Positions 5,317-60,212 of a DNA stretch of 64,000 nt are shown here, piece after piece (within the stretch, counting starts at the first letter, position 1; each line of letters starts with the position of its first letter). Both the position numbers and the translations under genes were made by a program. Origin of the DNA: Deltaproteobacteria bacterium (GTDB taxonomy: Bacteria > Lernaellota > Lernaellaia > JACKCT01); the NCBI GenBank assembly GCA_020633895.1, contig JACKCT010000005.1, positions 155,789 to 219,788 on the forward strand, written 5' to 3'. The notes beneath the pieces are model-generated. The model was not told the origin of the DNA. It ran no database searches and saw only the letters and a list, made by a program, of their open reading frames with translations.

Positions 5317-6903
5317 ATGAGTTCGTCCGCCGGTGAAGGCTCCTACGTCAAGGGTTCCTTGGCCCAAACGCCTTTTCCCAATGTCCTTCACTACATCCAC
5401 ATCGCGAGCAAAACCGGCATTTTGGCCGTGGTGCGGGGCCCCAAGAAGGTCCATATCCACTATGACAGCGGGCGCATCGTCTATGTGACCAGCAGCTATT
5501 TCCCCGAATTGTCGATCGGGGAATATCTGGTGCACAAGAATCTCATCAGCAGCGAGGACGCCAAGGAATCCTTCGAGGCGACGCGCGACGGCGACACCAA
5601 GCAGGGCATGTACCTGGTCGATCAAGGCAAACTGACGCCTCACAAGCTGCATGAAGCCCTCAACGAGCACGTCAAACTCAAGCTGTTCAAGATTTTCGGC
5701 TGGCCCGACGGAGAGTTTTTCTTCAAACAGGGTCCCATCATCGAGCCCGAGCATCGGGTCCTGACGGTGCATATGGGCAATCTGATCTACACGGGCGTGC
5801 GCGACCATTTCCCGATGAAATCCCTTCCCCGGGAGTTCAAAGGGCGCAAGGAGTCGGCGGTCGTCAAGCGCGAAAGCCCGCGTTTCGCCATGGATGAAAT
5901 CGCCTTCGGTCCGGCGGACACGCGCATGCTGGCGCTGGTCAACGGGCAGCTCACCCTGCGCCAGATCGTGACCGCTTCCAAGCTCAAGAAGAGCCAGGCC
6001 TACCACATCCTTTACGGCCTCTACCTGCTGGGATTCGTGGGATTTCCCGAAAGCGTGCGACGTCGGCCGGAAGCGAATGCCGGCGGCAGCTACCAGGAGC
6101 GGGTGCTGCGCGAGCAGGAGGAAAAGGCCAAGCGCCAGGCGGCCAAGCAGCGCCAGGGCTACGAGATCAATATCGCCGACGACGTGATCGCCGAGGCGCT
6201 CAAGAGCGTGGACCGGGCCAAGGAAGCCGTCCGTAGTGCGACGACGACCATGCCGGCGCCGATTCCCGACGCGCCCGTGCCGACCGCTCCGGCCACGACG
6301 ACCCCGGCGACCGCCCCGGCCGAGACGACCGAGCCGGACATCTTCGGCGAGTCGGTGGACGCGGATTCGGAACTGTTTTTCGAGACGGCCGCCCAGCCCG
6401 CGGACGAAGAGGTCACGCAGGCCTTCGACGACAATTACGGCTGGCAGCACGAGCCGGAAGAGACGCCGACCGAGTTCGAGGACATCAGCCCCGAGACCTA
6501 TCTGGAAACGGAGGACACGGGGATCGACCTGTCGGCGTACGACAACGCCGAGGATCTGACCAAGCAGGGGCAGTACCTCATGGAGGAGGGCCGCTTTAAC
6601 GACGCGGAGAAGTTCTTCGAGAAGGCCCTGGAGATGGACCCGGACAGCGCCGAGGCGTCGGTGCATCTGGGGTGGACGAAATACAATCGGTCGGCGGGCA
6701 TGGAGGTGCAGGACTCGGAGCGCCTCATCCGCGACGGCCTCAAACGCAATCCCGCCATGTTTCAGGCATTCCTCTATCTGGGCAAAATCTACATGGCCGA
6801 AAACCAGATGGAGTTCGCCGAACTGCATTTCGTGAAGGCGCTCGAACTGAACGTCGACTGCGCCGAAGCCCGCGAGCAGATCAAAAAAATCCACGCCGGT
6901 TAA
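5317..6903 (+). CDS. DUF4388 (PatA-N-like) domain protein with Pro/Thr-rich linker and C-terminal TPR repeats
   Basis: N-terminus 'GSLAQTPFPNVLHYIHIASKTGILAVVRGPKKVHIHYDSGRIVYV' is DUF4388-like. The C-terminus has TPR-like helices ('AEKFFEKALEMDPDSAEA...', 'AELHFVKALELNVDCAEA'). AGGTGG lies 5 nt before ATG 5317. Confidence 0.7.
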   Translation: MSSSAGEGSYVKGSLAQTPFPNVLHYIHIASKTGILAVVRGPKKVHIHYDSGRIVYVTSSYFPELSIGEYLVHKNLISSEDAKESFEATRDGDTKQGMYLVDQGKLTPHKLHEALNEHVKLKLFKIFGWPDGEFFFKQGPIIEPEHRVLTVHMGNLIYTGVRDHFPMKSLPREFKGRKESAVVKRESPRFAMDEIAFGPADTRMLALVNGQLTLRQIVTASKLKKSQAYHILYGLYLLGFVGFPESVRRRPEANAGGSYQERVLREQEEKAKRQAAKQRQGYEINIADDVIAEALKSVDRAKEAVRSATTTMPAPIPDAPVPTAPATTTPATAPAETTEPDIFGESVDADSELFFETAAQPADEEVTQAFDDNYGWQHEPEETPTEFEDISPETYLETEDTGIDLSAYDNAEDLTKQGQYLMEEGRFNDAEKFFEKALEMDPDSAEASVHLGWTKYNRSAGMEVQDSERLIRDGLKRNPAMFQAFLYLGKIYMAENQMEFAELHFVKALELNVDCAEAREQIKKIHAG

Positions 6904-7031
6904 GTCAGGATTTGCCGCTTGGGCAAACGCAACGACGGTTTTCCTTGCGTTGTGTATAAATTCCTGCGCACAATTATCTCCTGTTAGCGATATATTCCTG
7001 GACGCAAAATTAAGGGAGGGCATTTCCGCCC

Positions 7032-9407
7032 ATGCTTTCGCCGCGACATATCTCGCTCCTTGCCGTCCTTCTCTTTTTGTTCGCTCCGCTTGCGTGCGGG
7101 GGAGAGAGCGACGAATCGGACCCGGTCTCGTCGGAATCTGAAGCGATCGATGGCGATGACGATGGCGATGGCGACGACAGTTCCGCGAGCGACGTGGATG
7201 ACGATGATTCCGCTGACGACGATACGACTGATACGGCCGTCGACGACGATACCGACGACGATACCGACGACGGCGAAGTCAGACCAACTTCCTGCCCCCA
7301 AGGCGAACGCATCGCCGAAGGCGAGCCCGGCGCCGGCGGGTGCCTCTCACAGATTACCTCGGGTTCGTACCTGAATTGGGAAGAGGAAGAGACGGTGATG
7401 GATTCGATTCTCACCGACGACGGTCAATTTCAAATTATCGTCGGCTCGGGGCGTCGAATCGAGGTCTATGCCACTGACACGATCGGGGCCAAGGACTCGG
7501 GCGAACCCGAATTCCGGCGGGAGATCGTCGCGCAAACGGGTAAACGTCCCGCGATCACCGTGGACGGCGACGGAGTTCGCCACGCGGCCTGGTATGACGC
7601 CCGCCACCGCCGTTTGTTGTATGCCAACGACGCGTCCGGCGAATGGATTCCGGAAATCGTCGACGACAACACCTACACGTCCGGGTCGCGGCCGTCGATT
7701 GCCGTCGATGGGCAAGAGACCGTTCATCTGGTCTATCGCAGCGGCCGTTATGCCACCAACGCCTCCGGGAAATGGGAGCATCGAGATCCGTTCGGGACGG
7801 CGAGCTACGGTGACAGCTCCATCGCGGTCGGCGCCGACCAAAAGGTCTACGCATGGTTCGGAAACTCCGGTGCGCTGGCGCAATTGGAGGACGGGGAGTG
7901 GACGCTTCTCGAACCCATCGAGGAAACCTACCAATCGGACAACGGCCGGATCCGCGTCGCTCCCGACGGGAAAATCCACCTGGCTCGATGGGAAAAGATT
8001 GTCGAGGTGTTGGAGTACAATACGTATTCGCCGGGAGTCGGATGGGCCGACGACGACCTGCGCTATCGGACATCCTCCCTGCCGGCGCTGACTTTGGACG
8101 CGCAAGGCAACGCCCACACCGTCGCCTATGTCGTCCGATCGGTCCGCTGCGACGATTGCGAAAACGACAAGGACGGCATCTGTATTCCCGAGTATTGCGA
8201 ACAGAAGTATGCCTTTCGTCACACGGCTTGGAACGGGGCCGAGCGTTTCGACGACGATCTGATCGATCTCCATGAGGTTGTGGAGGAAATCACGGCCCGG
8301 ATGGCGCCCGATGGCCGACTGCATGCCGCGTGGCTGACCTATGACGAATTCGAGTATGCGCTCCTGGAGGAGGGAGTTTGGCGGAGATTCGTCATCGCCG
8401 CCGACGACTCCAAATCGGCTCCCGGATTGGCGTTCGAAAAGGATCAGATTCCGCACGTGGTTTACGCGACGCAGACGGGAGTGTTCGATCTTTTTCGGAC
8501 GGGCGACGATTGGCGACAGCGAGAGATCATCGAAGTTCCGGTGGAGACTTATCCGAAATCGCGAAGAATTATTTTTCGCCCCCGCAATGCGCTCGCCGAC
8601 GCCTCGGGAACCGTTCACGCCTTTTTCTATGAATCCGCCAGGGACGAAAATCTAGTCTGGACATACACTCTTTACCACGCGTTCCTCGTCGGCGACCGAT
8701 GGGAAAGGCAAGAGATCACACCGACGGACTTGCCCGACCCGTCGGCCGGCAAAAACGGACTCGATTTTACCGTGGGCCTGACTGCCGCCGGCGAGGTCTA
8801 CCTGATTTATCTCGGCAACCAAGGCATTCGCGCCGCCGTGCAAAAAGACGGTCAATGGAGCGACTACCAAATCCGAGACGAGATCGCCGCTCCGGTGGAC
8901 AGCGATTATCACCCCGAGGTGGGAACGACGATCCTTCTGCGCGATCGCAATTCGGGCCGTATCTCTTTGGCGACCGATTCGTCCGGCGCGTGGGAGGTCG
9001 AGACGGTTCCCTTCGGCGTGTCCATGGAGGACGCGGTGGTTTCGATCGCGCCCGACCGGCGGATCTTCGTCGCCGCTCGTCGAGAGAACGGCGGCGTGTT
9101 CCTGGCCGTCAAGGACAACGGGTCGTGGACCGATTTTTCTTGGGAGAAGAGGGCGACAGCGGGGAACATCGCCATGGCGATCGACGCATCCGGCGCCCCG
9201 CAGATTTATTGCGCCACCGGCGATCAGTTGCTCAACCTGACCTTGCGTGACGGACAATTACAGTCTGCGCAAGTGGATTCCTTCGAGGGATATTGGACCT
9301 TCGTGGGTGTCGCGGCGATTCGTCCCGACGGAACGCACTGGGCTGTGCATACCTACCACAACGCGATCCAGCTTTTTGAAGGTCCGCCGCCGATTCCGAG
9401 TGAGTGA
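7032..9407 (+). CDS. Large lipoprotein with Asp-rich tether and repeated beta-propeller-like units
   Basis: Signal peptide plus lipobox 'LFAPLAC'. About 70 aa D/S/T-rich linker (DGDDDGDGDDSSASDVDDDDSADDDTTDTAVDDDTDDDTDD). Then repeated units of the type 'S(I/L)AVD..G..H.(A/V)(W/Y) ... L.YA....G.W'. Confidence 0.8.
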   Translation: MLSPRHISLLAVLLFLFAPLACGGESDESDPVSSESEAIDGDDDGDGDDSSASDVDDDDSADDDTTDTAVDDDTDDDTDDGEVRPTSCPQGERIAEGEPGAGGCLSQITSGSYLNWEEEETVMDSILTDDGQFQIIVGSGRRIEVYATDTIGAKDSGEPEFRREIVAQTGKRPAITVDGDGVRHAAWYDARHRRLLYANDASGEWIPEIVDDNTYTSGSRPSIAVDGQETVHLVYRSGRYATNASGKWEHRDPFGTASYGDSSIAVGADQKVYAWFGNSGALAQLEDGEWTLLEPIEETYQSDNGRIRVAPDGKIHLARWEKIVEVLEYNTYSPGVGWADDDLRYRTSSLPALTLDAQGNAHTVAYVVRSVRCDDCENDKDGICIPEYCEQKYAFRHTAWNGAERFDDDLIDLHEVVEEITARMAPDGRLHAAWLTYDEFEYALLEEGVWRRFVIAADDSKSAPGLAFEKDQIPHVVYATQTGVFDLFRTGDDWRQREIIEVPVETYPKSRRIIFRPRNALADASGTVHAFFYESARDENLVWTYTLYHAFLVGDRWERQEITPTDLPDPSAGKNGLDFTVGLTAAGEVYLIYLGNQGIRAAVQKDGQWSDYQIRDEIAAPVDSDYHPEVGTTILLRDRNSGRISLATDSSGAWEVETVPFGVSMEDAVVSIAPDRRIFVAARRENGGVFLAVKDNGSWTDFSWEKRATAGNIAMAIDASGAPQIYCATGDQLLNLTLRDGQLQSAQVDSFEGYWTFVGVAAIRPDGTHWAVHTYHNAIQLFEGPPPIPSE

Positions 9408-9437
9408 GAACCCCGGGTCGACAGGACATCCGCCGGG

Positions 9438-10004
9438 TTAACGAGGCAAGTCCCGACCCCGACAGCCGAATCCGCCGCCGTCGTCATCATCGTCGGTGTC
9501 GTCATCCGGCGTTGTGTCGTCATCGGTCGTGTCATCGTCGTCGTCGGTCATCATCGCCACGGCCAAGACCTCGTTGCCGTCGTCCAGGCCTCGCGAATCG
9601 CTGTAGGTTTGGCCATCGCGAAACGAATAGTACCAGGCGTTGGAATCGCCCCAGAAATCCCCGCAGACGATGTCAAAGACCGGCGAAATGTGCAGCGTAT
9701 CGTCCGGGCACGCCTCGGTGCTCCATGCGAATTCGGTGTCGTAAAGGGAGTCCAATTCGACCTGGGTCGGCATGCGCCAGGCGTATCCCGCCGTTTCCAA
9801 TTCGCCGACGTAATAAATTGCCGCGTCGAAAAACGAGATCGAACGACTGCCGTTGCTGCGTTTGGTCCAGATGAGCCCGCTTTCGGTGTCGGTTACGGTT
9901 CCGTCGTCATTGTCGACAATCCCGGCGAGCGCGTCCGACGGCACGGCGGCGAAGCCAAGATGCAGGCATGCGAAGGACAAGAGCAGGAAGACAATTGTTT
10001 TCAT
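9438..10004 (-). CDS. Secreted DUF1566-like protein with D/T-rich C-terminal tail
   Basis: Start MKTIVFLLLSFACLHLGFAA is a signal peptide (ATG at 10004). 'TESGLIWTKRSN...WRMPTQVELDSLY' resembles DUF1566 (Lcl C-terminal-like). The tail is 'MMTDDDDDTTDDDTTPDDDTDDDDDGGGFGCRGRDLPR'. Confidence 0.65.
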   Translation of the reverse strand: MKTIVFLLLSFACLHLGFAAVPSDALAGIVDNDDGTVTDTESGLIWTKRSNGSRSISFFDAAIYYVGELETAGYAWRMPTQVELDSLYDTEFAWSTEACPDDTLHISPVFDIVCGDFWGDSNAWYYSFRDGQTYSDSRGLDDGNEVLAVAMMTDDDDDTTDDDTTPDDDTDDDDDGGGFGCRGRDLPR

Positions 10005-15704: not shown

Positions 15705-15949
15705 CAGAGCCTCGAACGCCTCTTCAGAGCCCCGAACGGTAGTGAGGGGTCAACTCGAACGTTGTCATGATGAGATTCCGCCCCTTCGGAGCCGCGACCG
15801 TCAGGGAGCGGGTTGGTCCGCACCGGCACGCTTCGATCGTTGTTTAACACATCCCGCGAGGCGTACTGAATTGCACCAAACCGCTTACTACCGTGCGCGG
15901 CTCTGACGGAAGGGGGCGCGGCTCCGACGGAGGGGCTCGCGGCTCGGAC
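15705..15949. repeat. Cluster of R1 hairpin units (REP-like)
   Basis: cagagccccgaacggtagtgaggggtc at 15725..15751. Variant at 15787..15813. Inverted copy aaccgcttactaccgtgcgcggctctg at 15879..15905. Degenerate copies continue to about 15949. Confidence 0.85.
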
Positions 15950-17506: not shown

Positions 17507-17764
17507 CAGAGCCGCGACCCTTGCCCGTCAGAGCCGCGCACGGTAGTAAGCGGTTGGTTTCGAGCCCGGATATATCGTTCGTTGTTCGTCTGTTTCTTCG
17601 TCTGTTTCAGAGCCCCGACCTGTAGGGAGGGGTCTGATGTAACCCGGAACGCCGCGTATGTTGTTCGAACTTGCGTCTGACAGAGCCGCGCGCGTCAGCA
17701 AGCGGTCCAAATCGATCGACAAATCGAACCGCTCGACAACCCCGCGCTAACGCTTGGGGCTCGG
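17507..17764. repeat. Cluster of R1 hairpin units (REP-like)
   Basis: Units at 17529..17555, 17608..17634 and 17681..17707. A reversed variant lies at about 17729..17764. Confidence 0.85.
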
Positions 17765-17851: not shown

Positions 17852-19051
17852 ATGACAATGCAAAACTCCCGACGATTTTGGATATTGGGTGTCGCCGCGC
17901 TGGCGGTGGCGTGGTCGAGTCTGGCGTGCGTTTCGGTGACGACGTCTTCCGGGGCACGGCCGCAAGCCGAGGCGCCGACGACCCCCACCGGGCGGGCGGC
18001 GTCCCGGGCTTCGGGTCTGGGGCCCAACGCGCCGAACATATTCTGGACCGAGGGCGGGGGCACGGCCGGCGACGTGAAGCTCTCGGGCGACACGTACATC
18101 CACCTGGCCGATCAGGCGAGCCCGGCCGTCGTCTCTATCTTCACCACGCAGGAATACGAGGCGCGCATCGGGGATCCCCTGGGCATCCTGCGCGTGCCGT
18201 TGGACGCGAACCTGGAGGCCACCAGCCTGGGCACCGGCTTTTTCATCAGCCGCGACGGCTTTCTGCTCACCAACGCCCATGTGGTCGCCAAGGCCGACCG
18301 CATCCACATCTTCATGCACGACCGATCCGAGGCCAAGGAGGTGCGGGTCGTCGGGGTCGACTCGTTGACCGACCTGGCGCTGCTCAAGGTCGAAACGCAG
18401 GAGCCCACGCCGTTTTTGTCCCTGGCCGACTCGGATGACGTGCGCATCGGCGAGATGGTGGTCGCCATCGGCAACCCCTTCGGTCTGGATTATTCGGTCA
18501 CGACCGGCGTGATTTCGGCGAAAAACCGCGTGCTCAACGCCGGGCGGCGGCGGGGTCTTTACGAGGACTTCCTGCAAACCAGCGCTCAGATCAATCCGGG
18601 CAACTCGGGCGGACCGCTGATCAATCTGCGCGGCGAGGTCGTCGGTGTGAACACGGCCATCATCGCCCAAGCCCAGGGCATCGGCTTCGCGGTGCCTTCG
18701 AATCTGGTCAAGGGGCTGCTGCCGGGTCTGGCGCGATACGGCAAGATTTCGCGCGGCTATTCGGGCATCGGCCTGGCCGAGTTGAATCCGGCCATCGCGC
18801 GACGGCTGGGGGTGAATCGCAGCAAGGGCGCGGTGGTGGTGTCCTTGGATCCGGACGGGCCGGGCGCGCGGGCGGGGGTGAAGGTCGGCGACGTGATCAC
18901 CGCCATCGACGGCGAGTCGATCGAAAGCTCCATCGAGGCCTCGCGGCGCATCACGGTCATGGAACCCGGCCATCACGCGACGCTTTCGATTCAGCGCGGC
19001 GGGGGCGAGACCGTGACGGTGAAATACACGACATCGAGCAAGACGGAATGA
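17852..19051 (+). CDS. htrA: HtrA/DegP-family serine protease (S1C) with one PDZ domain; probable lipoprotein
   Basis: Catalytic triad motifs 'LTNAHVV', 'DLALLKV' and 'NPGNSGGPLINLRGEVVGVNTAI'. PDZ segment 'GIGLAELNPAIARRLGV...GDVITAIDGESI'. N-terminal 'AVAWSSLAC' is a lipobox. Confidence 0.92.
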   Translation: MTMQNSRRFWILGVAALAVAWSSLACVSVTTSSGARPQAEAPTTPTGRAASRASGLGPNAPNIFWTEGGGTAGDVKLSGDTYIHLADQASPAVVSIFTTQEYEARIGDPLGILRVPLDANLEATSLGTGFFISRDGFLLTNAHVVAKADRIHIFMHDRSEAKEVRVVGVDSLTDLALLKVETQEPTPFLSLADSDDVRIGEMVVAIGNPFGLDYSVTTGVISAKNRVLNAGRRRGLYEDFLQTSAQINPGNSGGPLINLRGEVVGVNTAIIAQAQGIGFAVPSNLVKGLLPGLARYGKISRGYSGIGLAELNPAIARRLGVNRSKGAVVVSLDPDGPGARAGVKVGDVITAIDGESIESSIEASRRITVMEPGHHATLSIQRGGGETVTVKYTTSSKTE

Positions 19052-19488
19052 CGATGAGAATTCCAACACCCGACCGCGTTCGTTGGCTCCTTTTCGGTCT
19101 CACGCTCTTGGCAGTATTCGCCTTCGGTGCGTTCGCGTGCTCCGGCGATGACGACGATGACGATGACGCCGGAGCGGATGACGACGTCGCGGACGATGAC
19201 ACGTCTGACGACGACACCTCCGGCGACGACGATGCCGCGGGCGATGTGTGCGAGACCAACGAAGACTGCCCGATCACCTATTTCTGCAAAAAAGCCGTCG
19301 GCCTTTGCGGCGACGGACAAGGCGCCTGCAAGCTTTCGCCCCGCGCCGGATGCGACGAGGGCGACGAGGGCTGCGGCTGCGACGATGTCTACGAACCGGT
19401 ATGCGGTTGCGACGGCGAGACCTACGGCAACGAGTGCGACTCGGAACTGGCCGAGGTCAATATCGCCTCCGAAGGGGAGTGCCCCTGA
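19048..19488 (+). CDS. Lipoprotein: Asp-rich tether, Cys-rich module and Kazal-type domain
   Basis: 'AFGAFAC' lipobox, then 'SGDDDDDDDAGADDDVADDDTSDDDTSGDDD'. Kazal signature 'YEPVCGCDGETYGNECDSELAEVNIASEGEC'. Its ATG overlaps the htrA stop (ATGA at 19048..19051). Confidence 0.8.
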   Translation: MTMRIPTPDRVRWLLFGLTLLAVFAFGAFACSGDDDDDDDAGADDDVADDDTSDDDTSGDDDAAGDVCETNEDCPITYFCKKAVGLCGDGQGACKLSPRAGCDEGDEGCGCDDVYEPVCGCDGETYGNECDSELAEVNIASEGECP

Positions 19489-19518
19489 CGCGTTCGCGTC
19501 GGTGAGGAGGGTCGACCC

Positions 19519-19938
19519 ATGAAACTGATTTCGCGAGAATTCGGATGGATCCCGGCGGTCCTGATTCTGTTGTTCACGGCAATGACCGTGAGCGCTGTTT
19601 CCTGCGGTGACGACGACGATGACGACGAGACCGGCGCGGATGACGACATCGTGGATGATGACACGTCCGATGACGACAGCGGGGACGACGACGACACCGA
19701 AGGAGGATGTGCCTCCAACGACGACTGCGACGTCTTCGAGTACTGCGCGAAGGACGTCACGCTGTGCGACGAAGGCACGGGCGTCTGCATGGAGACGCCG
19801 GCCGCGTGCGACACTGACTACACGCCCGTTTGCGGCTGCGACGGCATCACGTATTCCAACGAATGCGTCGCGGCGTCGAATCGGGTGAATGTGTCCTACC
19901 GTGGGGAGTGCGGTTCCACAATAACTTCGGATAGTTAG
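19519..19938 (+). CDS. Lipoprotein: Asp-rich tether, Cys-rich module and Kazal-type domain (paralog)
   Basis: 'VSAVSC' lipobox, then 'GDDDDDDETGADDDIVDDDTSDDDSGDDDD'. Kazal signature 'YTPVCGCDGITYSNECVAASNRVNVSYRGEC'. Confidence 0.8.
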   Translation: MKLISREFGWIPAVLILLFTAMTVSAVSCGDDDDDDETGADDDIVDDDTSDDDSGDDDDTEGGCASNDDCDVFEYCAKDVTLCDEGTGVCMETPAACDTDYTPVCGCDGITYSNECVAASNRVNVSYRGECGSTITSDS

Positions 19939-19998
19939 ACGATCTTCAGCGCGCGCCGGGGCGACGCTCCGGGCGTGGAAAAGGCCAAGTCTTCGGCG

Positions 19999-20033
19999 AA
20001 ACGGTGCCCCTTGTGGGCATCGTTTTTGTTTAA
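19999..20033 (+). terminator. Rho-independent terminator after the Kazal genes
   Basis: aaacggtgcccc-ttgt-gggcatcgttt followed by ttttgttt. Confidence 0.6.
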
Positions 20034-20588
20034 TTCCTTACCGATTCTCCCCGGTTTTTTCGACGTTCAAAAATTTTTCGGACCGGTGTGACGAGTGAAC
20101 ACGGTTTCGGGCCCTCCCGGTGCTATTCCTCTTCTTGTGAAAGGCGGACGGCGCGATCGCAAATCGCAAAAACCGGCCGCCGGCCCAAGGACGGGCGCAC
20201 AAATCAACCGCACAGCATTGCATCCTGATCGAGGGAAACCCCTGCGTAGCGGGGAGGGATGACGCTTCACCATGGGTCCGAGGATTTTGCGGACCGCCGG
20301 TCGACAGGAAGTCGCCGGACACCGAAGGACGGACGGAACCGGACATGATCCATCGAGGAATTAGTTGGGGTGACTGATCTCGTTAAAGCCGTGGGGACGG
20401 CTTGGATTCGGCGCCTTGCCACCGGCTCGGAAGTTGACGGCCGGGTCGGTGGCGAGGCCCGAGCGACTCTCGAGGCCCGCTGACAATCCGACGCTGGAGC
20501 CGGCCATGGAGGGCCGGGCTCGCGTCTTTCGCCAAGGCTCCTAGGCGCCCTACGCAATAGGGCGTAGTCCACACATTCCCCCACCGTG

Positions 20589-20681: not shown

Positions 20682-21818
20682 TTATCGGCAGTCGTAGAGA
20701 TATTCGGTGCAGACGTCGACGGTGTCGTCGCAGCCGTAGTCCGTGTTGTAGATGGACCAGCGGCCCTGCTCGTCCAGCACGACGGTGTCGCAAGTGTCGG
20801 CTTTGCCGTCGCACGTGTCGTCGACGGTGTGGGCGACGAGCGCGCCGGTTTCGTTGAAGGTCCACCCGTTGCAGGCGGCGTCGTCGGTGCCGTCACAGTC
20901 GGTGTCCAAGGCGGTGACGGTCGTCTGCCCGCCGGCGTTATATTCCCAGCGCATGCATTGCGAGTCGCCGGTTTCGTCGCAGTCCGCGTCCTCGCCGCGA
21001 AATTCCGTTTGGCCGTTTTCGTTGAAGTATTCGATCGTGCAGCCTTCCAGCACGTCGTCGCAGCCGTCGTCGACCCGGATATGGCGCGATGAGTCGGGCT
21101 CGTCGGGAAAGGCGTAGTCGGTGCAAAATTCCGCTTCGCCGTCGCAGCCCGTGTCCTCGTTCCGATCGGTCAGGCGGCCGCTTTCGTCATAGGTCTGCGT
21201 GATGCACAGGTCCGGTTCGCCGTCGCAGGTTTCGTCGCGCGCCGTCCGCTCCAGGCGCCCTTCGTCGTCGTAGAAATATTCGGCGCAGTTCTCGTCCGCC
21301 TCGCCGTTGCAATCGCTGTCGAAGAACGTCGCCTCCAATCGGCCGGCCTCGTCGACGACAAAGGTGTCGCACTGGTCGGCCGCGCCGTCGCAGTCGGCGT
21401 CCGCGCCGGAAGTGACCAGATAGCCGCGCGAGTCATAGGTGTTGGCCCGGCAGTCCATGCCCTCGCGATCGCAGCCTTCGTCGTCCCACGTCGTGAGGTT
21501 TTGGCCGTTGGCGTTGTAGGTGGAATAGGTGCAGTGGTCCGGCGTGCCGTCGCAGTCTTCGTCGCGCTCGACGGTGGTCGGCAGGCACACCGGCTCCTCG
21601 TCGTCATCGCCCCCGGCGGTGTCGTCGTCGTCCGAATCGTCGTCGGAGGCGTCGTCATCGTCGTCCACGGTGGGCACCGCGTCGTCATCGTCGTCGTCGT
21701 CCGTGGCGGCTACCGAGCCGCGCGGCGTGGACGCATCCTCGTCGCCCCCGCATCCCGCCAGGGAGAACAGGAGCAACAGCAAGGCCGTCAGGGCGGCGGC
21801 GATCCAACGAAAACTCAC
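20682..21818 (-). CDS. Cys-clamped YD-like repeat lipoprotein, paralog A
   Basis: ORF 20682..21893. GTG 21818 gives (M)SFRWIAAALTALLLLLFSLAGC, a lipobox. The Asp-rich linker is followed by 11 repeats of the D.DCDG..D.C....YD..GR type. C-terminus is 'TEYLYDCR'. Confidence 0.85.
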   Translation of the reverse strand: MSFRWIAAALTALLLLLFSLAGCGGDEDASTPRGSVAATDDDDDDDAVPTVDDDDDASDDDSDDDDTAGGDDDEEPVCLPTTVERDEDCDGTPDHCTYSTYNANGQNLTTWDDEGCDREGMDCRANTYDSRGYLVTSGADADCDGAADQCDTFVVDEAGRLEATFFDSDCNGEADENCAEYFYDDEGRLERTARDETCDGEPDLCITQTYDESGRLTDRNEDTGCDGEAEFCTDYAFPDEPDSSRHIRVDDGCDDVLEGCTIEYFNENGQTEFRGEDADCDETGDSQCMRWEYNAGGQTTVTALDTDCDGTDDAACNGWTFNETGALVAHTVDDTCDGKADTCDTVVLDEQGRWSIYNTDYGCDDTVDVCTEYLYDCR

Positions 21819-21859
21819 CGATACCCGATCCTTCCCGCCCGGCGACGCCTTACACGTGC

Positions 21860-22990
21860 CTAGGCATCGCACTGGAACCCGTACGACTCGCATTCGTCGG
21901 CGACGCCGTCGCAGGTTTCGTCATAGTTCCACTCGACCGTATATCCGTATTCGTTTCCGACACCGCTGTAACACGATTCGGGCGTCCCGTCGCAAAATCT
22001 GTCGTACCTCTGGCCGATCAACGCGCCGTTTTCGTCGTAATCGTACGCGAAACAATATTCGTTCAGGCTGCCGTCGCAACCCGTATCCTGGCCCTCCGTC
22101 AAAACACGGCCTTGAGCGTCATACGTGGTGCGCGCACAGGTGAGGTCCGGGACTTTGTCGCAATTGTCGTCAACGCCATAGAGAGTTTGCCGACCGTCGT
22201 TGTCGAACTCGAGGACGTAGCAGGACAAATCCTCGCCGTCGCATCCGATGTCGTTACTCGTCGTTTCCCGATAGCCGCCGCCCTCCAGGTCAGTGTAGAC
22301 GTTGACGATGCACTGGTCCGGCGTTTCGTCACAGCCGGTGTCGACCGTGTTGGTCAACTCGCGGTCCTTGGCGTCGTAGGTCGACGTTCCGCAGGTTTCC
22401 GGCTTGCCGTTGCAATCGCCGTCGAATCTGATGCCGATGCGACGGCCTTTGCCGTCGTTTTCAAAGAGAACGCACTTGGAGTCGGCGAAGCCGTTGCAGT
22501 CGGTGTCGGAGAACTGCTCGATCAAGCGTCCGTCCTCAAACACCGAGCGCAAGCAGTCTTTGTCGGCGACACCGTCGCAGTCGGTGTCATCCCCATATAG
22601 GGTCTCGTTGCCGTTGCCGTCGTACTTTTGCAGGAAACAGCTTTCCGGCGATCCGTCGCAGTTCGCGTCATCCGCGCTGCGCGTCTGTTGGCCGTCGTCG
22701 TTGTATTCGTACGTGCGGCAGGTGTCCGGAAGGCCATCGCAGCCGTTGTCCACGGTCTTCGTCGTCCGGAGGCATTCCACCGCGTCGTCATCGTCGCCGG
22801 TGTCGTCGTCGCCCGAGTCGTCATCGACGGCGGAATCGTCGTCATCGGTCGCGTCATCGTCGACCGCGTCGTCATCCGCCGCGTCGTCGTCATCTCCGCC
22901 CCCGCCGCCGCCCCCGCCGCAGGATAGCGCCACGCCGGCCAGGGTCAGAGCCACCGCCAAAATCCACCACTGAGTGCGTTGCAGAGCCAT
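21860..22990 (-). CDS. Cys-clamped YD-like repeat lipoprotein, paralog B
   Basis: ATG 22990 gives MALQRTQWWILAVALTLAGVALSC. This is followed by a GGGGGGG-DDDD... linker and 11 repeats (for example 'DDTDCDGVADKDCLRSVFEDGRL'). It ends 'ESYGFQCDA'. Confidence 0.85.
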   Translation of the reverse strand: MALQRTQWWILAVALTLAGVALSCGGGGGGGGDDDDAADDDAVDDDATDDDDSAVDDDSGDDDTGDDDDAVECLRTTKTVDNGCDGLPDTCRTYEYNDDGQQTRSADDANCDGSPESCFLQKYDGNGNETLYGDDTDCDGVADKDCLRSVFEDGRLIEQFSDTDCNGFADSKCVLFENDGKGRRIGIRFDGDCNGKPETCGTSTYDAKDRELTNTVDTGCDETPDQCIVNVYTDLEGGGYRETTSNDIGCDGEDLSCYVLEFDNDGRQTLYGVDDNCDKVPDLTCARTTYDAQGRVLTEGQDTGCDGSLNEYCFAYDYDENGALIGQRYDRFCDGTPESCYSGVGNEYGYTVEWNYDETCDGVADECESYGFQCDA

Positions 22991-23075
22991 GGTCGAAACC
23001 CGCCTATGAAGCCGATGTCCCCGTATTTTATTTCCCGGGTGACGGCTTTGGGGAGGCGGTCCATCGGCCAGACGT

Positions 23076-23110
23076 AAAAAAAGACGGCGCCCCGTCAAAG
23101 GAGCGCCGTC
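23076..23110 (-). terminator. Rho-independent terminator after paralog C
   Basis: On the minus strand: gacggcgc-tcctttgacggg-gcgccgtc followed by ttttttt. Confidence 0.6.
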
Positions 23111-23159
23111 GTGTTCGATCGTGAAATGTCGTCGCTTTGGCCGAGGGCGGGTCGGCGCC

Positions 23160-24254
23160 TTAGAAGCAGGCCATGTCCCAGTCGGTGCAGCTCTCCGGGT
23201 CGCCGTCGCAGCCTTCGTCCTGCGTGACGACGTCCAGTCGCCCGTTTTCATCAACGGTCGCCGAAGTGCAGGAATCCGGCGTGCCGTCGCACTCATCGTC
23301 CCGCTGGCTGGAAATCGTCACGCCGAATTCGTTGACGACCCATTCGTAGCAATCCCGATCCGCTTCGCCGTCGCAGTCTTGATCCAGAAAGGAGCTTTCC
23401 AGGCCGTGCTCGCCGTACGTCCAGTGATAGCATCCCTCGTCGGCCTCGCCGTCGCAGTCCGCGTCGAAGCCTTGGAACAGGGTTCGCATCTCGTCGTCCA
23501 AAAGACTCACGTCACAATCCTCGAACGGCTCGCCTTCGCAGCCCAGGTCGGGTTTGTAGAGTTGATGCGTGTTGCCGTCCTCGTCGAGCGTGTAGGTCGT
23601 GTAATGGCATTCATCCGGTGTCTCGTCGCAGTCGTAGTCCACGTAGCGCTCGATTTGGCGCCCCCGGCTATCGTACACGGTGGCGTAGCACGTGTCGGGT
23701 GAGTCGTCGCATTCGGTGTCGAGGGCTCGGGTCGCCTCCAGGCCGGCGGCGTTGTACGTGATATTGGAACAGGCTTCGTCGGCCTCGCCGTCGCAATCCG
23801 GGTCCGAGCCGCTGAACACGACCAGGTCGCCCTCATATTTGTAAATGTAGCAGGATTGATCCGGCGTCCCGTCGCATTCGTTGTCCCGACCTTCGCCGAC
23901 GCGGCGGCCCTCGTCGTCATATTGAACCACGTAGCAGGATTCCGGCGATCCGTCGCACAGTTCGTCCGTCTCCCGATACAGCAGGTTGCCGTCCTCGTCG
24001 AAATGCGAGCGATCGCAGTAGCTCGGATCGTCGCCGCATTCGGGATAGATCGTGATCGATTCCGGCTGGCAGACCTGGTCGTCGTCGGCGGTGTCGTCAT
24101 CCGTCGTGTCGTCGTCATCGTCCGTATCGTCGTCGGTCACATCGTCATCGGACGAGTCGTCGTCGTCTCCGCCATTGTCGCAGGCTGTGGGAAGAACGAT
24201 CAGCGCCGAGGCGATGAGCAAAACGATCGTCAGCCAAAGGCCATATCGCGCCAT
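23160..24254 (-). CDS. Cys-clamped YD-like repeat lipoprotein, paralog C
   Basis: ATG 24254 gives MARYGLWLTIVLLIASALIVLPTAC. The Asp-rich linker is followed by about 11 repeats (for example 'DNECDGTPDQSCYIYKYEGD', 'DYDCDETPDECHYTTY'). It ends 'TDWDMACF'. Confidence 0.85.
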   Translation of the reverse strand: MARYGLWLTIVLLIASALIVLPTACDNGGDDDDSSDDDVTDDDTDDDDDTTDDDTADDDQVCQPESITIYPECGDDPSYCDRSHFDEDGNLLYRETDELCDGSPESCYVVQYDDEGRRVGEGRDNECDGTPDQSCYIYKYEGDLVVFSGSDPDCDGEADEACSNITYNAAGLEATRALDTECDDSPDTCYATVYDSRGRQIERYVDYDCDETPDECHYTTYTLDEDGNTHQLYKPDLGCEGEPFEDCDVSLLDDEMRTLFQGFDADCDGEADEGCYHWTYGEHGLESSFLDQDCDGEADRDCYEWVVNEFGVTISSQRDDECDGTPDSCTSATVDENGRLDVVTQDEGCDGDPESCTDWDMACF

Positions 24255-24288
24255 GAGGACACCCTCCCAAAAATCCAGTTGACGATTT

Positions 24289-25341
24289 CTAATAGCACTC
24301 GGTTTCGTATTCCAGACACACGTCGGTCGATCCGTCGCAGCCGCTGTCGACGAAATACGTTTCCCACAGCCCGTTCTCGTCAATCTCTCCGCCGGCTTCG
24401 CAGTATTCAGGCTCGCCGTCGCAGTTTTGGTCCGTCGTTACCGTCGCGACTAATCCAAAGTCGTTGTAGGTAATGGTCCGGCAATCCGTGAACGAACCGT
24501 CGCAGCCGTCGTCGGATTTGGAGAAGGTCGGCTGTCCGTCGGCCGAATACTTTTCTTCGTAGCAATACTCGCCGTTTTCGTCGCAGCCTTCGTCGAACTT
24601 GGACGCCAAGTCGTAGCTGCCGTCCGGGTGATCGGTGTAGGTGATTTTGCCGCAGTCGAACGGCCCGGCCAGATCGCATCCTTCGTCGACGAGGACCGCC
24701 GTCTGGCGTCCTTTTTCGTCATAGGTGTATTTCGTGCATACGTCGGGCACGTCATCGCACGCCTCGTCCGTTTCCTCGTTCGTCAGGCGGCCGTCCTCGT
24801 CGTAGATCCGCGCCCGGCAGTTGGTCTTCACCGAGTCGGTGCAGTCGTCGTCGAAATAGGTTTTGTAGGTTCGGGTCGACTCGAAGTATTGGCCGCGAAA
24901 GCACGAGTCGCCCTTGGGACCGTCGCAGCCTTCGTCGGAGCGGTCGAGGAGAATCCGGCCTTCGTCGTCGTTTTCGGAGGTGCTGCAATAATCCCGCTTG
25001 CCGTCGCAATCCGTGTCGATGTCGAAGGCGGTTTCGTTGCCGTTCTCGTCGTAGGTGAAGAAAATGCAGTTATCGCCGTCGCCGGGCCCGTCGCACATCA
25101 GATCGAAGGTCCGTTCGGTAACTCGGCAGACCTCATCCTCGTCCGTGTCGTCATCCGCGTCGTCGTCTGTCGTGTCGTCGTCAACGGAGTCGTCATCGCC
25201 GGTGTCGTTGTCATCATCGGCGACGTCGTCATCCGCGGAGTCGTCATCGTCACCACCGCCGCCGCCGCAGGCCAACGGCACGGCGACAAACAAGACGACG
25301 ACGAAAAACATCAGGCAGGCCATTTGCGGAGTACGATTCAT
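24289..25341 (-). CDS. Cys-clamped YD-like repeat lipoprotein, paralog D
   Basis: MNRTPQMACLMFFVVVLFVAVPLAC lipobox, then 'GGGGGDDDDSADDDVADDDNDTGDDDSVDDDTTDDDADDDTDEDE'. Repeats follow (for example 'DTDCDGKRDYCSTSENDDEGRI'). It ends 'LEYETECY'. Confidence 0.85.
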   Translation of the reverse strand: MNRTPQMACLMFFVVVLFVAVPLACGGGGGDDDDSADDDVADDDNDTGDDDSVDDDTTDDDADDDTDEDEVCRVTERTFDLMCDGPGDGDNCIFFTYDENGNETAFDIDTDCDGKRDYCSTSENDDEGRILLDRSDEGCDGPKGDSCFRGQYFESTRTYKTYFDDDCTDSVKTNCRARIYDEDGRLTNEETDEACDDVPDVCTKYTYDEKGRQTAVLVDEGCDLAGPFDCGKITYTDHPDGSYDLASKFDEGCDENGEYCYEEKYSADGQPTFSKSDDGCDGSFTDCRTITYNDFGLVATVTTDQNCDGEPEYCEAGGEIDENGLWETYFVDSGCDGSTDVCLEYETECY

Positions 25342-25378
25342 CGGAGCGCCTTTCGCCGAAGTTCAGCAACCGTGGTCA

Positions 25379-26443
25379 TCAGACGCACGCATAATCGAAA
25401 TCGATACAGGAATTGATCGTTCCGTTGCAATCCTCGTCGATAATGTACAGGTCGACATTGCCTTCGTCATCGGACGAACCCACCCGTTCGCAATATTCAT
25501 CTTCGCCGTCGCATTCTTCGTCATGCTTGAAATCGATGACCTGTCCGGCGGCGTTGTATTCCCAGGTTTCGCACTCGGCAAACGTTCCGTCGCAGTCGTC
25601 GTCGCGTCTAGCCGCGATGCGTCGATTGTCCGCGTTGTAGGTCGTCTCGTTGCAGAATTCCTTGACGTCGTCGCATCCATTGTCCTGCGTTAGAAGAATG
25701 ACGAGCCCGTCGTCCGTTTCGGTGCGTTGGTATGTCAGGCAAACGTCCGCGCCGCCGTCGCAGCCGTTGTCCGTCTCGCGTGAAGCGAGATTGCCGTCGG
25801 CATCGTACCCATAGGCCAGGCACAATTCGCCTTTGCCGTCGCATTCCTTGTCCAGTTCGAAGGACGTGCTGTTGCCGTCGGCATTGTATTTGACCGTGGT
25901 GCAGTCGACCGGATCGGTGTTGTCGCAGTCTTCGTCGGTCAAAGCGGACAGTGTCTTGCCGTCTTCACTATAAGTATTCCGAATGCACACATCTCCCGAC
26001 GGGCCGTCGCAGTCGACGTCCGTGCGGATCAGGGCGATGCGTCCTTGTTCGTCGTACGTGGTCGTTCGACAGGCCTCCGATTTATCGTCGCACTCAAGGT
26101 CGTCTTCCATATAGGTGGCCTGATGATCGGCGTTGTATTGCCACGATTGGCAAAGATCTCCATCGCCGGGGCCGTTGCACATATTGTCGTAGTTCTTTTT
26201 CCGCATTTCGCAGACGACTTTCTCCTCCGTATCGTCGTCGCTGTCGTCGTCGTCCGAATCGTCATCCTCCGAGTCGTCATCCGTGGACGAATCGTCATCG
26301 GTTTCATCGTCGTCGTCGTCGGAGTCGTCGTCGGTGTCGGCCGCGTCATCGTCGTCGCTTCCGCAGCCACAGGCCGTCGGCGCAAACAAAGACATGAAAA
26401 CGAGCACGAAGAAAACAATGAGTTTCAGTTGGCGGCTTGGCAT
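25379..26443 (-). CDS. Cys-clamped YD-like repeat lipoprotein, paralog E
   Basis: MPSRQLKLIVFFVLVFMSLFAPTAC lipobox and an Asp-rich linker. Repeats follow (for example 'DVDCDGPSGDVCIRNTYSEDGKT', 'DDDCDGTFAECETWEYNAAGQV'). It ends 'IDFDYACV'. Confidence 0.85.
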   Translation of the reverse strand: MPSRQLKLIVFFVLVFMSLFAPTACGCGSDDDDAADTDDDSDDDDDETDDDSSTDDDSEDDDSDDDDSDDDTEEKVVCEMRKKNYDNMCNGPGDGDLCQSWQYNADHQATYMEDDLECDDKSEACRTTTYDEQGRIALIRTDVDCDGPSGDVCIRNTYSEDGKTLSALTDEDCDNTDPVDCTTVKYNADGNSTSFELDKECDGKGELCLAYGYDADGNLASRETDNGCDGGADVCLTYQRTETDDGLVILLTQDNGCDDVKEFCNETTYNADNRRIAARRDDDCDGTFAECETWEYNAAGQVIDFKHDEECDGEDEYCERVGSSDDEGNVDLYIIDEDCNGTINSCIDFDYACV

Positions 26444-59128: not shown

Positions 59129-59635
59129 TCAGGAATCCGGGCCCGGGGCGCAGGCGATCAGTTCGTCACAGTCGCCGTTATAGGCCGCGAAGCAATCGGC
59201 CGCTTGCTGTTCGAGCTTGCCGTCCAGGCAGTCTTCCAGGCAGAGTTCGGCGAGCATCGTGACCGTCGGCGGGTTGTTCTCGCCCCAGTCCAGGCAATCC
59301 TGCAAGCCGTCCATATTCGCGTCGACGCAGTAGTCGTCGCACTGTTCCGCCGGCACGGGATTGACCGCTCCTTCTTCGTCGTCATCGTCCCCGATGTCGT
59401 CGTCGGCCGCGTCGTCGTCATCGTCGCCGGGGGCGGGATTTTCGTCGAAATAATCGCCCGGATCCCGGTCCGCGTCGGAGTCGTCGTCGTCGTCCGCGTC
59501 GGACACGCCCTCATCGGACGAATCGTCGTCGTCGTCCCCCGCCGAGGCGCAGGCTGCCGCCAAAGCGGCCAGAAACGCGCTCGCCGCCAGGGCGGCGAGA
59601 ACGAGTCGTTTGGGATGAGGCCGGCGCGCGTTCAC
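59129..59635 (-). CDS. Small lipoprotein: Asp-rich tether plus 8-Cys (twin Cx3C) domain
   Basis: ORF 59129..59827. GTG 59635 gives (M)NARRPHPKRLVLAALAASAFLAALAAAC, a lipobox. Next comes 'ASAGDDDDDSSDE...DDDDDAADDDIGDDDDEE', then 'CDDYC...C...CLEDC...C...C..LIAC'. Confidence 0.7.
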   Translation of the reverse strand: MNARRPHPKRLVLAALAASAFLAALAAACASAGDDDDDSSDEGVSDADDDDDSDADRDPGDYFDENPAPGDDDDDAADDDIGDDDDEEGAVNPVPAEQCDDYCVDANMDGLQDCLDWGENNPPTVTMLAELCLEDCLDGKLEQQAADCFAAYNGDCDELIACAPGPDS

Positions 59636-59640
59636 GACCC

Positions 59641-60066
59641 TTACCGTCCGACGCACGCCAGGAAGGCCGCGCACTCGCCGTCTTCGTAGTTTTCGAAGCA
59701 GGTCAAGATGCCCAGGGGCATGGCTCCGGCCTCGCATTGGGCCTTGCATTCGGCGATTTGCTGCGCGGTGGTCATGTCGGCGTCCTCGCCGCAGGTGTGG
59801 ACGATATTCGCGCTTTCTTCCGTGCACAATTCGCCGCAGCGTTCCGGCGGCAGGTATTCTTCCTCGTCGGTGTCGTCATCCGTCGCGGACGTGTCGTCGT
59901 CGGCGCCCGAGGTGTCGTCATCGGTGGTCGTGGACGAGGAATCGTCGTCATCGTCGCCGCTGTGGCAACTCGAGCCCAACACCGCCAAAGCGATCGTCAA
60001 AACCGCCAGGGCGACCAGGTACGCGCGCCAGGTGTGGGGGGAAAGCCGTGCCGTCGTCGCTGTCAT
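59641..60066 (-). CDS. Small lipoprotein: Asp-rich tether plus 8-Cys (twin Cx3C) domain (paralog)
   Basis: ATG 60066 with GGAGG upstream. 'YLVALAVLTIALAVLGSSC' lipobox. 'HSGDDDDDSSSTTTDDDTSGADDDTSATDDDTDEEE'. Then 'CGELC...C...CKAQC...C...C..FLAC'. Confidence 0.75.
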   Translation of the reverse strand: MTATTARLSPHTWRAYLVALAVLTIALAVLGSSCHSGDDDDDSSSTTTDDDTSGADDDTSATDDDTDEEEYLPPERCGELCTEESANIVHTCGEDADMTTAQQIAECKAQCEAGAMPLGILTCFENYEDGECAAFLACVGR

Positions 60067-60212
60067 CTTCGCTCGCCTCCGTCGGAAAATGCCGGTTTGA
60101 CCGCGGGTCATCACCGCGTCGCTCCGTGGGCCGATGGGGATAAATTACCGACCCCATGCCGAAAAACAATCATTATTCTCATAATTTCGACGATTTTGTC
60201 CACCGGCGGACG

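Follow-up and report, generated by a model that had tools for sequence, protein, structure and literature searches.

What does it mean when a bacterial protease gene is followed, in one tight unit, by two small genes whose products resemble animal protease inhibitors? This question is raised by a 64-kb stretch of DNA from an uncultured activated-sludge bacterium (the window, as the whole analysed stretch is called here). In it, a gene for an HtrA-family serine protease (htrA) and two genes for small predicted lipoproteins, named here K1 and K2, form three tightly spaced open reading frames (ORFs) on the same strand with a hairpin at the end, as seen in the ORF list and by direct reading. An earlier note on this DNA had described the arrangement as a split version of the HTRA1 architecture and had proposed a cognate inhibitor or regulator pair for the protease. 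The reading tentatively preferred here is that K1 and K2 may be membrane-tethered, standard-mechanism (canonical-loop) serine-protease inhibitors in the cell envelope, their activity, targets and location being inferred.

Profile matches and predicted structures together identify K1 and K2 as Kazal-fold proteins; in the models a short helix packs against a small sheet of three strands, and a loop is exposed. K2 exceeds the cut-offs of both Kazal models (Kazal_1, 35.0 bits against 21; Kazal_2, 29.0 bits against 22.8), whereas K1 remains slightly below the curated cut-offs (19.9 and 20.1 bits, respectively). The clear Kazal signature attributed by the earlier note to both proteins is therefore recovered by hidden Markov models (HMMs) for K2 and falls just short for K1. 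No NCBIfam model fits either protein. The two are paralogous (48% identity, E 3e-15), as had been supposed for the gene found 30 nt downstream of K1. AlphaFold2 models obtained with a 123-sequence alignment have predicted local distance difference test (pLDDT) values of 91.5 for K2 and 90.8 for K1. In Foldseek comparisons of these predicted structures, the Kazal halves match OMTKY3, leech-derived tryptase inhibitor (LDTI), Galleria silk protease inhibitor 2 (SPI2, GmSPI2) and SPINK1 with probability 1.00 and a root-mean-square deviation (rmsd) of 0.7-1.2 Å. Superposition on OMTKY3 gives 1.0-1.2 Å (1.2 Å over 44 columns for K2), and the family profile, K1 included, matches ovomucoid (E 2.5e-15), SPI2 (E 1e-11) and LDTI (E 1.4e-11).

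Among solved structures, SPI2 (4hgu/2m5x) and LDTI (1an1/1ldt) are nearest to the Kazal half, with 46-50% identity, 0.7-0.8 Å over 37-38 columns and loops of equal length; K1 superposes on LDTI at 0.8 Å and on SPI2 at 0.7 Å, the Kazal-half identities being 50% and 46%, respectively. Both relatives are free, secreted animal proteins of ~40 residues for which inhibition has been shown, whereas the activity of K1 and K2 is read from the fold. Besides, K1 and K2 add to this plan an N-terminal hairpin, a lipid anchor and a poly-Asp spacer. The lipobox is AFAC (Cys31) in K1 and AVSC (Cys29) in K2, and the spacer comprises residues ~32-65 and ~30-61, respectively. The hairpin plus Kazal module that follows has 12 Cys in K1 and 10 Cys in K2, the K1 module being a variant with a 10-residue, two-Cys insertion before the loop. 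The lipoprotein calls for HtrA, K1 and K2 are matches to the pattern [LVI..][ASTVI..][GAS]-C, acylation being predicted.

The loops equivalent to the reactive site (Table 1) retain what a canonical loop is expected to have: the C-x7-C spacing, Tyr at P2', the PVCG motif and the Asn of TYGNEC or TYSNEC. The HMM alignment, in the ovomucoid register (P1 two residues after the Cys with which the C-x7-C loop begins), gives Asp113 as the P1 equivalent of K1 and Thr99 as that of K2, in agreement with the assignment previously made by eye. On the other hand, the classical six-Cys pattern of Kazal-type inhibitors (MEROPS I1; disulfides 1-5, 2-4 and 3-6, Cys5 following Cys4 by two or three residues) is absent from both proteins, which have no Cys behind NEC in the place of Cys5 (NxC-xx-C) and carry an extra Cys in PVCGCDG.

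Related to the K genes themselves, the K2 orthologue is publicly annotated as a 118-aa protein (P0001) that begins within the signal peptide (window 19519-19581), and the 139-aa ORF with its strong Shine-Dalgarno box is the better gene model. Between the two strains, K2 varies in its poly-Asp run and has one substitution (RGEC against RGGC). The leader DNA of K1 and K2 (19140-19237 and 19602-19699) is 81% identical over 98 nt, compared with 48% for the proteins overall; low-complexity codon repetition or gene conversion could be the origin of this high identity.

The earlier note had described both small proteins as a lipobox, a poly-Asp tether, a separate six-Cys module and a Kazal domain. 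All these parts were found again except the separate module: judging from the sequences, the six-Cys part and the Kazal half are a single stereotyped unit of ~70 residues and 10 Cys (12 Cys in K1). In an exhaustive profile search the whole ~70 residues (profile positions 2-71) recur as a unit, often in 4-29 copies per protein, with matches in 15,351 representative clusters at E <= 1e-3 and in 5,612 at E <= 1e-10. The top 150 proteins contain 831 full units; exactly 10 Cys were counted in 630 of these, and C[GAS]C[DN], the PVCGCDG motif, is present in 801. The extra PVCGCDG Cys is missing from those Kazal-only units that keep the classical C-x3-C behind the helix, and for this reason it probably takes the place of the classical Cys5 as partner of a hairpin Cys. 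The Cys pattern is consistent with a non-classical Kazal domain whose first disulfide has been relocated.

A census with two strict peptide patterns in 185,579 species-representative genomes matched 535 stretches, 491 of which encode a relative of the module (confirmed by tblastn at E <= 1e-3). The taxa include Myxococcota, Planctomycetota, Caulobacterales, Nitrosomonas and Sorangium, as well as metagenome-assembled genomes (MAGs) labelled as DPANN or Heimdall archaea. The statement that Kazal domains are uncommon in bacteria is therefore true only in relative terms. A word-index search with the K2 domain, which returned three proteins only, had also suggested that the module is rare, and this idea was overturned by the profile search and the pattern scan. 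Small single-module proteins (93-142 aa) are common in the family. Lipobox-like signals were recognised in 68 of 120 examined, and a poly-Asp run in none of them. Both the module and its small-lipoprotein format thus belong to known kinds, the local feature being the poly-Asp spacer. Multi-module 10-Cys proteins were seen in MAGs labelled Heimdallarchaeota, Nanoarchaeia, Woesearchaeota and Pacearchaeota (L008, L016, L040, L064, L067, L080); these archaeal-labelled occurrences reflect either wide transfer of the module or contaminated binning.

The whole unit resembles the follistatin (FS) module of follistatin, FSTL1/3 and agrin, which has ~70 residues and 10 Cys, joins an N-terminal disulfide hairpin to a Kazal domain and is found in tandem arrays; FS modules bind TGF-beta ligands or heparin. 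In sequence, positions 5-70 of the family profile can be aligned with the FS domains of follistatin (E 1.3e-5 to 9e-5), and Foldseek aligns 68-90 columns with FS domains (69-81 for K2 with follistatin), the whole-unit rmsd being high (4.4-5.5 Å). Unlike the FS module, the bacterial unit has the extra Cys in PVCGCDG and no classical Cys5; the Cys register of the Kazal half differs, and the N-terminal part gave no Pfam match (E <= 1 or 10), FOLN included, beyond weak sub-threshold ones. This likeness brings in a first alternative, according to which K1 and K2 would not be inhibitors but disulfide-rich modules for binding or structure, like the FS domains of follistatin, agrin and SPARC, with a Kazal loop that plays no role towards proteases; they might bind a ligand, a metal or a surface component, or build an acidic, Ca2+-binding envelope layer. 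The alignment of the whole unit with FS domains in sequence and structure favours this view, as do the frequent long arrays of 4-29 units, reminiscent of matrix proteins, and the five further Cys-rich poly-Asp lipoprotein genes adjoining K1 and K2. The dominance of Asp and Glu at the P1-equivalent position points in the same direction; over 737 units this position is highly variable (D, E, A, L, K, R, Q, T and others), with Asp as the most frequent residue. However, the Kazal half is nearest in sequence to the true inhibitors SPI2 and LDTI and retains the loop-stabilising Asn and Tyr, and a multi-headed layout is characteristic of genuine Kazal inhibitors too (ovomucoid and LEKTI, for example). 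A non-inhibitory role is considered somewhat unlikely.

The protease encoded upstream combines a trypsin-like domain carrying the intact catalytic triad (His143, Asp174 and Ser252, within the motifs TNAHV, DLALL and GNSGGP) with a C-terminal PDZ domain, which places it in the HtrA/DegP family (S1C). Pfam matches are Trypsin_2 (1.2e-34) and PDZ_2 (2.1e-12), and the score with the Do-family model TIGR02037 (319 bits) is under the cut-off (416) because there is only one PDZ. A feature that had been overlooked is that HtrA itself has a lipobox (SSLAC, Cys26), again a pattern match. A lipobox near residue 20 is common to most of the orthologues (P0005-P0045; ~380-400 aa, one PDZ) and, since it has been kept across them, the clade is predicted to consist of lipid-anchored, single-PDZ HtrA proteins rather than soluble periplasmic ones. 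The nearest relatives are labelled from Deltaproteobacteria to Candidatus Lernaella.

The three ORFs were found where the earlier note had placed them, and so was the ATGA overlap at 19048-19051, in which the ATG at 19048 overlaps the htrA stop codon. The public gene caller starts K1 at the alternative in-frame ATG 19054 (the gene at 11203 of contig L001 corresponds to this position), so the htrA-K1 junction is either -4 or +2 nt. Between the K1 stop codon and the ATG of K2 (19519) there are 30 nt. The terminator that had been said to close the unit is matched by a terminator-like 12-bp hairpin with a T-run; it is the strongest among the six terminator-like sites of the region, where shuffles predict 3.2 +/- 1.8. 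The promoter scan gave no sigma-70-like promoter upstream of htrA, and there are no Rfam matches in the window. This layout suggests that htrA, K1 and K2 are probably co-transcribed and that K1 is probably translationally coupled to htrA. The region is covered by contigs from four activated-sludge or wastewater data sets. The htrA-K1 junction is bridged by contigs X4 (18616-19063) and X6 (18811-19101) and the K1-K2 junction by X1 (19410-19615) and X3 (19361-19580), in each case from independent data sets, so the arrangement is not an assembly chimera.

Table 1. Coordinates of the htrA-K1-K2 unit, its parts and the other ORFs with lipobox and poly-Asp leader in the window
Feature	Coordinates	Strand	Description
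htrA	17852-19051	+	399-aa S1C serine protease, one PDZ, predicted lipoprotein signal
HtrA lipobox Cys26	17927-17929		SSLAC
HtrA catalytic triad	18278-18280; 18371-18373; 18605-18607		His143; Asp174; Ser252
HtrA PDZ	~18749-19018		PDZ_2
htrA stop codon	19049-19051		TGA
K1	19048-19488	+	146-aa predicted lipoprotein (144 aa if the start is ATG 19054)
K1 hairpin plus Kazal module	19243-19485		12 Cys
K1 reactive-site-equivalent loop	19378-19404	+	Cys111-D-D-V-Y-E-P-V-Cys119; C-x7-C register in HMM alignment
K1 P1 equivalent	19384-19386		Asp113
K1 stop codon	19486-19488
K2 Shine-Dalgarno-like box	19504-19510	+	GAGGAGG, 8 nt upstream of K2 ATG; direct sequence reading
K2	19519-19938	+	139-aa predicted lipoprotein
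K2 hairpin plus Kazal module	19702-19935		10 Cys
K2 reactive-site-equivalent loop	19807-19833	+	Cys97-D-T-D-Y-T-P-V-Cys105; register as in K1
K2 P1 equivalent	19813-19815		Thr99
Intrinsic-terminator-like hairpin and T-run	19998-20036 (hairpin 19998-20026)	+	12 bp, 6 G-C pairs; closes the unit
Five paralogous genes	20682-26443	-	Lipobox, poly-Asp leader and Cys-rich body; convergent with htrA-K1-K2, immediately downstream
Three further ORFs	7032-9407; 59129-59827; 59641-60114		Lipobox and poly-Asp leader

Whether such tight linkage reflects a functional partnership was addressed from both sides. On the HtrA side, 87 related loci (39-67% identity by best tblastn segment) were surveyed, with at least 600 bp of downstream sequence in 76 of them and at least 1,500 bp in 65; none carries a Kazal module (0/87). 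Among these loci are 80 metagenomic HtrA relatives, which have no Kazal module within 4 kb. In all six of the closest orthologues with context (59-65% identity), the gene after htrA is convergent or unrelated. On the Kazal side, the best 80 of the 491 module loci (755 kb in total) were searched for HtrA within 6 kb, and one of them (L070) has an HtrA-like neighbour, a Trypsin_2 protein without PDZ that is encoded right after a five-module Kazal protein. Fusions with HtrA are absent among 270 family proteins. The arrangement is repeated only in the same-species contig L001 (GCA_020440635.1). The htrA-Kazal pairing is recent and narrow, because it is found at 0/87 HtrA loci and 1/80 Kazal loci and the fusions number 0/270. 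The earlier note had named beforehand a lack of conserved pairing in relatives as the outcome that would count against its proposal, and this is the outcome that the synteny comparison gave.

Recurrent contexts of the module are clade-specific only, as in the DUF533-Kazal-VWA_CoxE order of Caulobacterales-type loci. This order is apparently conserved among single-module Kazal lipoproteins of marine Caulobacterales type (L002-L005; Hellea, Algimonas and Caulobacterales within L013-L034), in which a start/stop overlap joins the DUF533 gene to the Kazal gene.

These surveys bear directly on the cognate-pair proposal, according to which the Kazal loop of K1 and/or K2 binds the active site of the co-encoded HtrA and acts as a tethered inhibitor or regulator on a shared membrane surface; the pair would then have arrived by convergence, and with its parts in trans, at an analogue of the way in which HTRA1 combines its domains. 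The 4-nt overlap or 2-nt gap and the single terminator are in its favour, and so are the predicted lipid anchors of all three proteins, which could co-localise, and the canonical loop geometry of the K1 and K2 models. The Thr at the P1 equivalent of K2 fits the preference of HtrA-family proteases (DegP/HtrA) for small aliphatic or beta-branched residues, and direct inhibition of HtrA by K2 is possible on this ground, whereas K1 has Asp. The absence of the pairing at the related HtrA loci, the six closest included, the single HtrA-like neighbour on the Kazal side and the lack of fusions speak against it, and the proposal is regarded as unlikely. A stricter version, in which K2 and perhaps K1 are genuine lipid-anchored, standard-mechanism inhibitors of the co-encoded lipoprotein HtrA, seems very unlikely. 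To our knowledge, no dedicated protein inhibitor of a bacterial HtrA has been known previously; if inhibition of HtrA by K2 were true, it would be the first, and an independent in-trans reinvention of the vertebrate HTRA1/3/4 combination of Kazal and HtrA.

The comparison with HTRA1, HTRA3 and HTRA4 starts from the likeness that a Kazal-fold module and a single-PDZ S1C protease are encoded together. In the vertebrate proteins these parts are fused, whereas the bacterial ones are separate polypeptides. The upstream subdomain had been taken for an IGFBP-like module. Unlike that of HTRA1, it is a ~30-residue hairpin without an IGFBP HMM match: neither K1, K2 nor 10 N-subdomains of the family gave any at E <= 10, and Dickkopf_N matches, present in 6 of these 10 subdomains, were sub-threshold (12.7-17.7 bits against a cut-off of 25). 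IGFBP, FOLN and Dickkopf_N were all rejected as the identity of this part, since none reached threshold and only the Dickkopf_N similarity was faintly seen; the unit aligns instead with the FS domains described above. IGFBP7 (8ivd) is a weak structural match to the K1 and K2 modules, and the N-domain of HTRA1 does not appear in the lists of sequence and fold matches of the bacterial module. The Mac25/IGFBP plus Kazal N-domain of HTRA1/3/4 was gained once, by fusion with an IGFBP7-like gene in the common ancestor of vertebrates (PMC5823240), which leaves no link of descent with the bacterial operon. The operon has neither an IGFBP domain nor a conserved linkage. Nothing can be learned from it about how the vertebrate architecture originated, and the idea of a split HTRA1 that hints at how the fusion arose has to be abandoned; the co-occurrence is at most coincidental or convergent. 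In HTRA1 and HTRA3, moreover, the Kazal-containing N-domain is dispensable for activity and its deletion raises activity only ~3-fold (PMC4481513), a further point against the cognate pair.

The poly-Asp leaders of the region introduce another explanation of the adjacency. A lipobox followed by a poly-Asp leader is present in 10 ORFs of the window, K1, K2 and eight others. Five of the latter are the paralogous genes immediately downstream, whose products (350-478 aa, 24-27 Cys) contain repeated D-x-D-C-D-G-like motifs and leaders with the same xDDDVxDDD pattern as K1 and K2. Pfam gave nothing for the three members scanned (20682-21893, 21860-23296 and 23160-24383); the two other members of the cluster are at 24289-25341 and 25379-26443. 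Poly-Asp/Ser lipoproteins also occur at two related HtrA loci (L086 and L088). The acidic spacer looks like a lineage-wide lipoprotein leader, and the suggestion that the tether is a special feature of the K1/K2 pair was discarded because eight other ORFs of the window and related loci share it. At L086, the locus of the closest HtrA orthologue (65% identity), htrA is followed on the same strand by another kind of poly-Asp/Ser lipoprotein gene (6706-8233), which is apparently broken up into overlapping ORFs, and then by an rve-family transposase (8483-9553); this layout suggests that the region downstream of htrA is variable.

The adjacency could then be without specific significance for function, the result of a poly-Asp lipoprotein cassette, mobile or variable, that was inserted at the 3' end of htrA; or K1 and K2 could simply be clients of HtrA, linked to it only by the general quality control of abundant, disulfide-rich lipoproteins. 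With 10 poly-Asp lipoprotein ORFs in 64 kb, one beside htrA is unsurprising; the disrupted gene and transposase after htrA at L086 are in line with a cassette, and ATGA overlaps are the most frequent bacterial gene junction. However, the tight junctions, the intactness of both copies and the recurrence of the same arrangement in sludge metagenomes of several studies argue that the unit is maintained; besides, this explanation leaves the role of the Kazal module unaccounted for. It is regarded as unlikely.

Upstream of htrA, a REP-like interspersed repeat of ~30 nt, CAGAGCCGCGCACGGTAGTAAGCGGT, was observed in direct and inverted copies (window 15723-15910 and 17525-17706). It sits in the intergenic regions on either side of an FAD amine-oxidase gene, with three copies just upstream of htrA. 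Since the depth of metagenome contigs at the repeat is 10-100x that of the flanks, it is a multi-copy element.

In the inhibitor reading preferred here, the unit could have been assembled as follows. K1 and K2 would be lineage-specific tandem duplicates, each consisting of one common bacterial hairpin plus non-classical Kazal module placed on the usual lipobox and poly-Asp leader of the lineage. The pair would have landed directly 3' of a lipoprotein, single-PDZ htrA, with which it is probably co-transcribed and translationally coupled, and the acidic spacer would hold the inhibitor modules off the membrane. The preferred targets would be proteases of the S1 or S8 type, the partner HtrA excepted, either foreign ones from the protease-rich sludge community or enzymes that the bacterium itself secretes, and the transcript shared with htrA would reflect common expression for envelope protection rather than a cognate pair. 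The reading draws on the proximity of the Kazal half to proven inhibitors, on the retained loop-supporting residues and on the hypervariable P1-equivalent position, as in canonical inhibitor families.

Several points weigh against it. Inhibition has to be deduced from the fold alone because no experimentally characterised member of the bacterial module family was found in the literature. The commonest P1 equivalent of the family, shared by K1, is Asp, a poor P1 residue for most S1 and S8 enzymes according to established data on OMTKY3 P1 variants, and no inhibition is exerted by the FS/Kazal modules of follistatin, agrin or HTRA1. Among the +/-1 neighbours of 76 other module loci, Pfam scans gave no recurrent peptidase family, so genomic context offers no clue to the targets of the inhibitors. 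Finally, the tight coupling to htrA is equally expected of a cognate regulator.

A functional analogue for the preferred reading is ecotin, a periplasmic pan-serine-protease inhibitor which guards the envelope of Gram-negative cells against exogenous serine proteases (reviewed in PMC9904509). It differs from K1 and K2 in its unrelated dimeric beta-barrel fold, in being soluble instead of lipid-anchored and in having no link to htrA.

The module of K1 and K2 belongs to a very large and phylogenetically wide bacterial and archaeal family of follistatin-like modules of ~70 residues, in which a hairpin is joined to a non-classical Kazal domain and of which databases annotate the Kazal half only. 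Within this family the operon is a compact and easily cloned test case, with one protease and two single-module proteins that have different P1 equivalents, and it could serve to learn if protease inhibition is a property of such modules at all and if an HtrA can be engaged by a canonical inhibitor.

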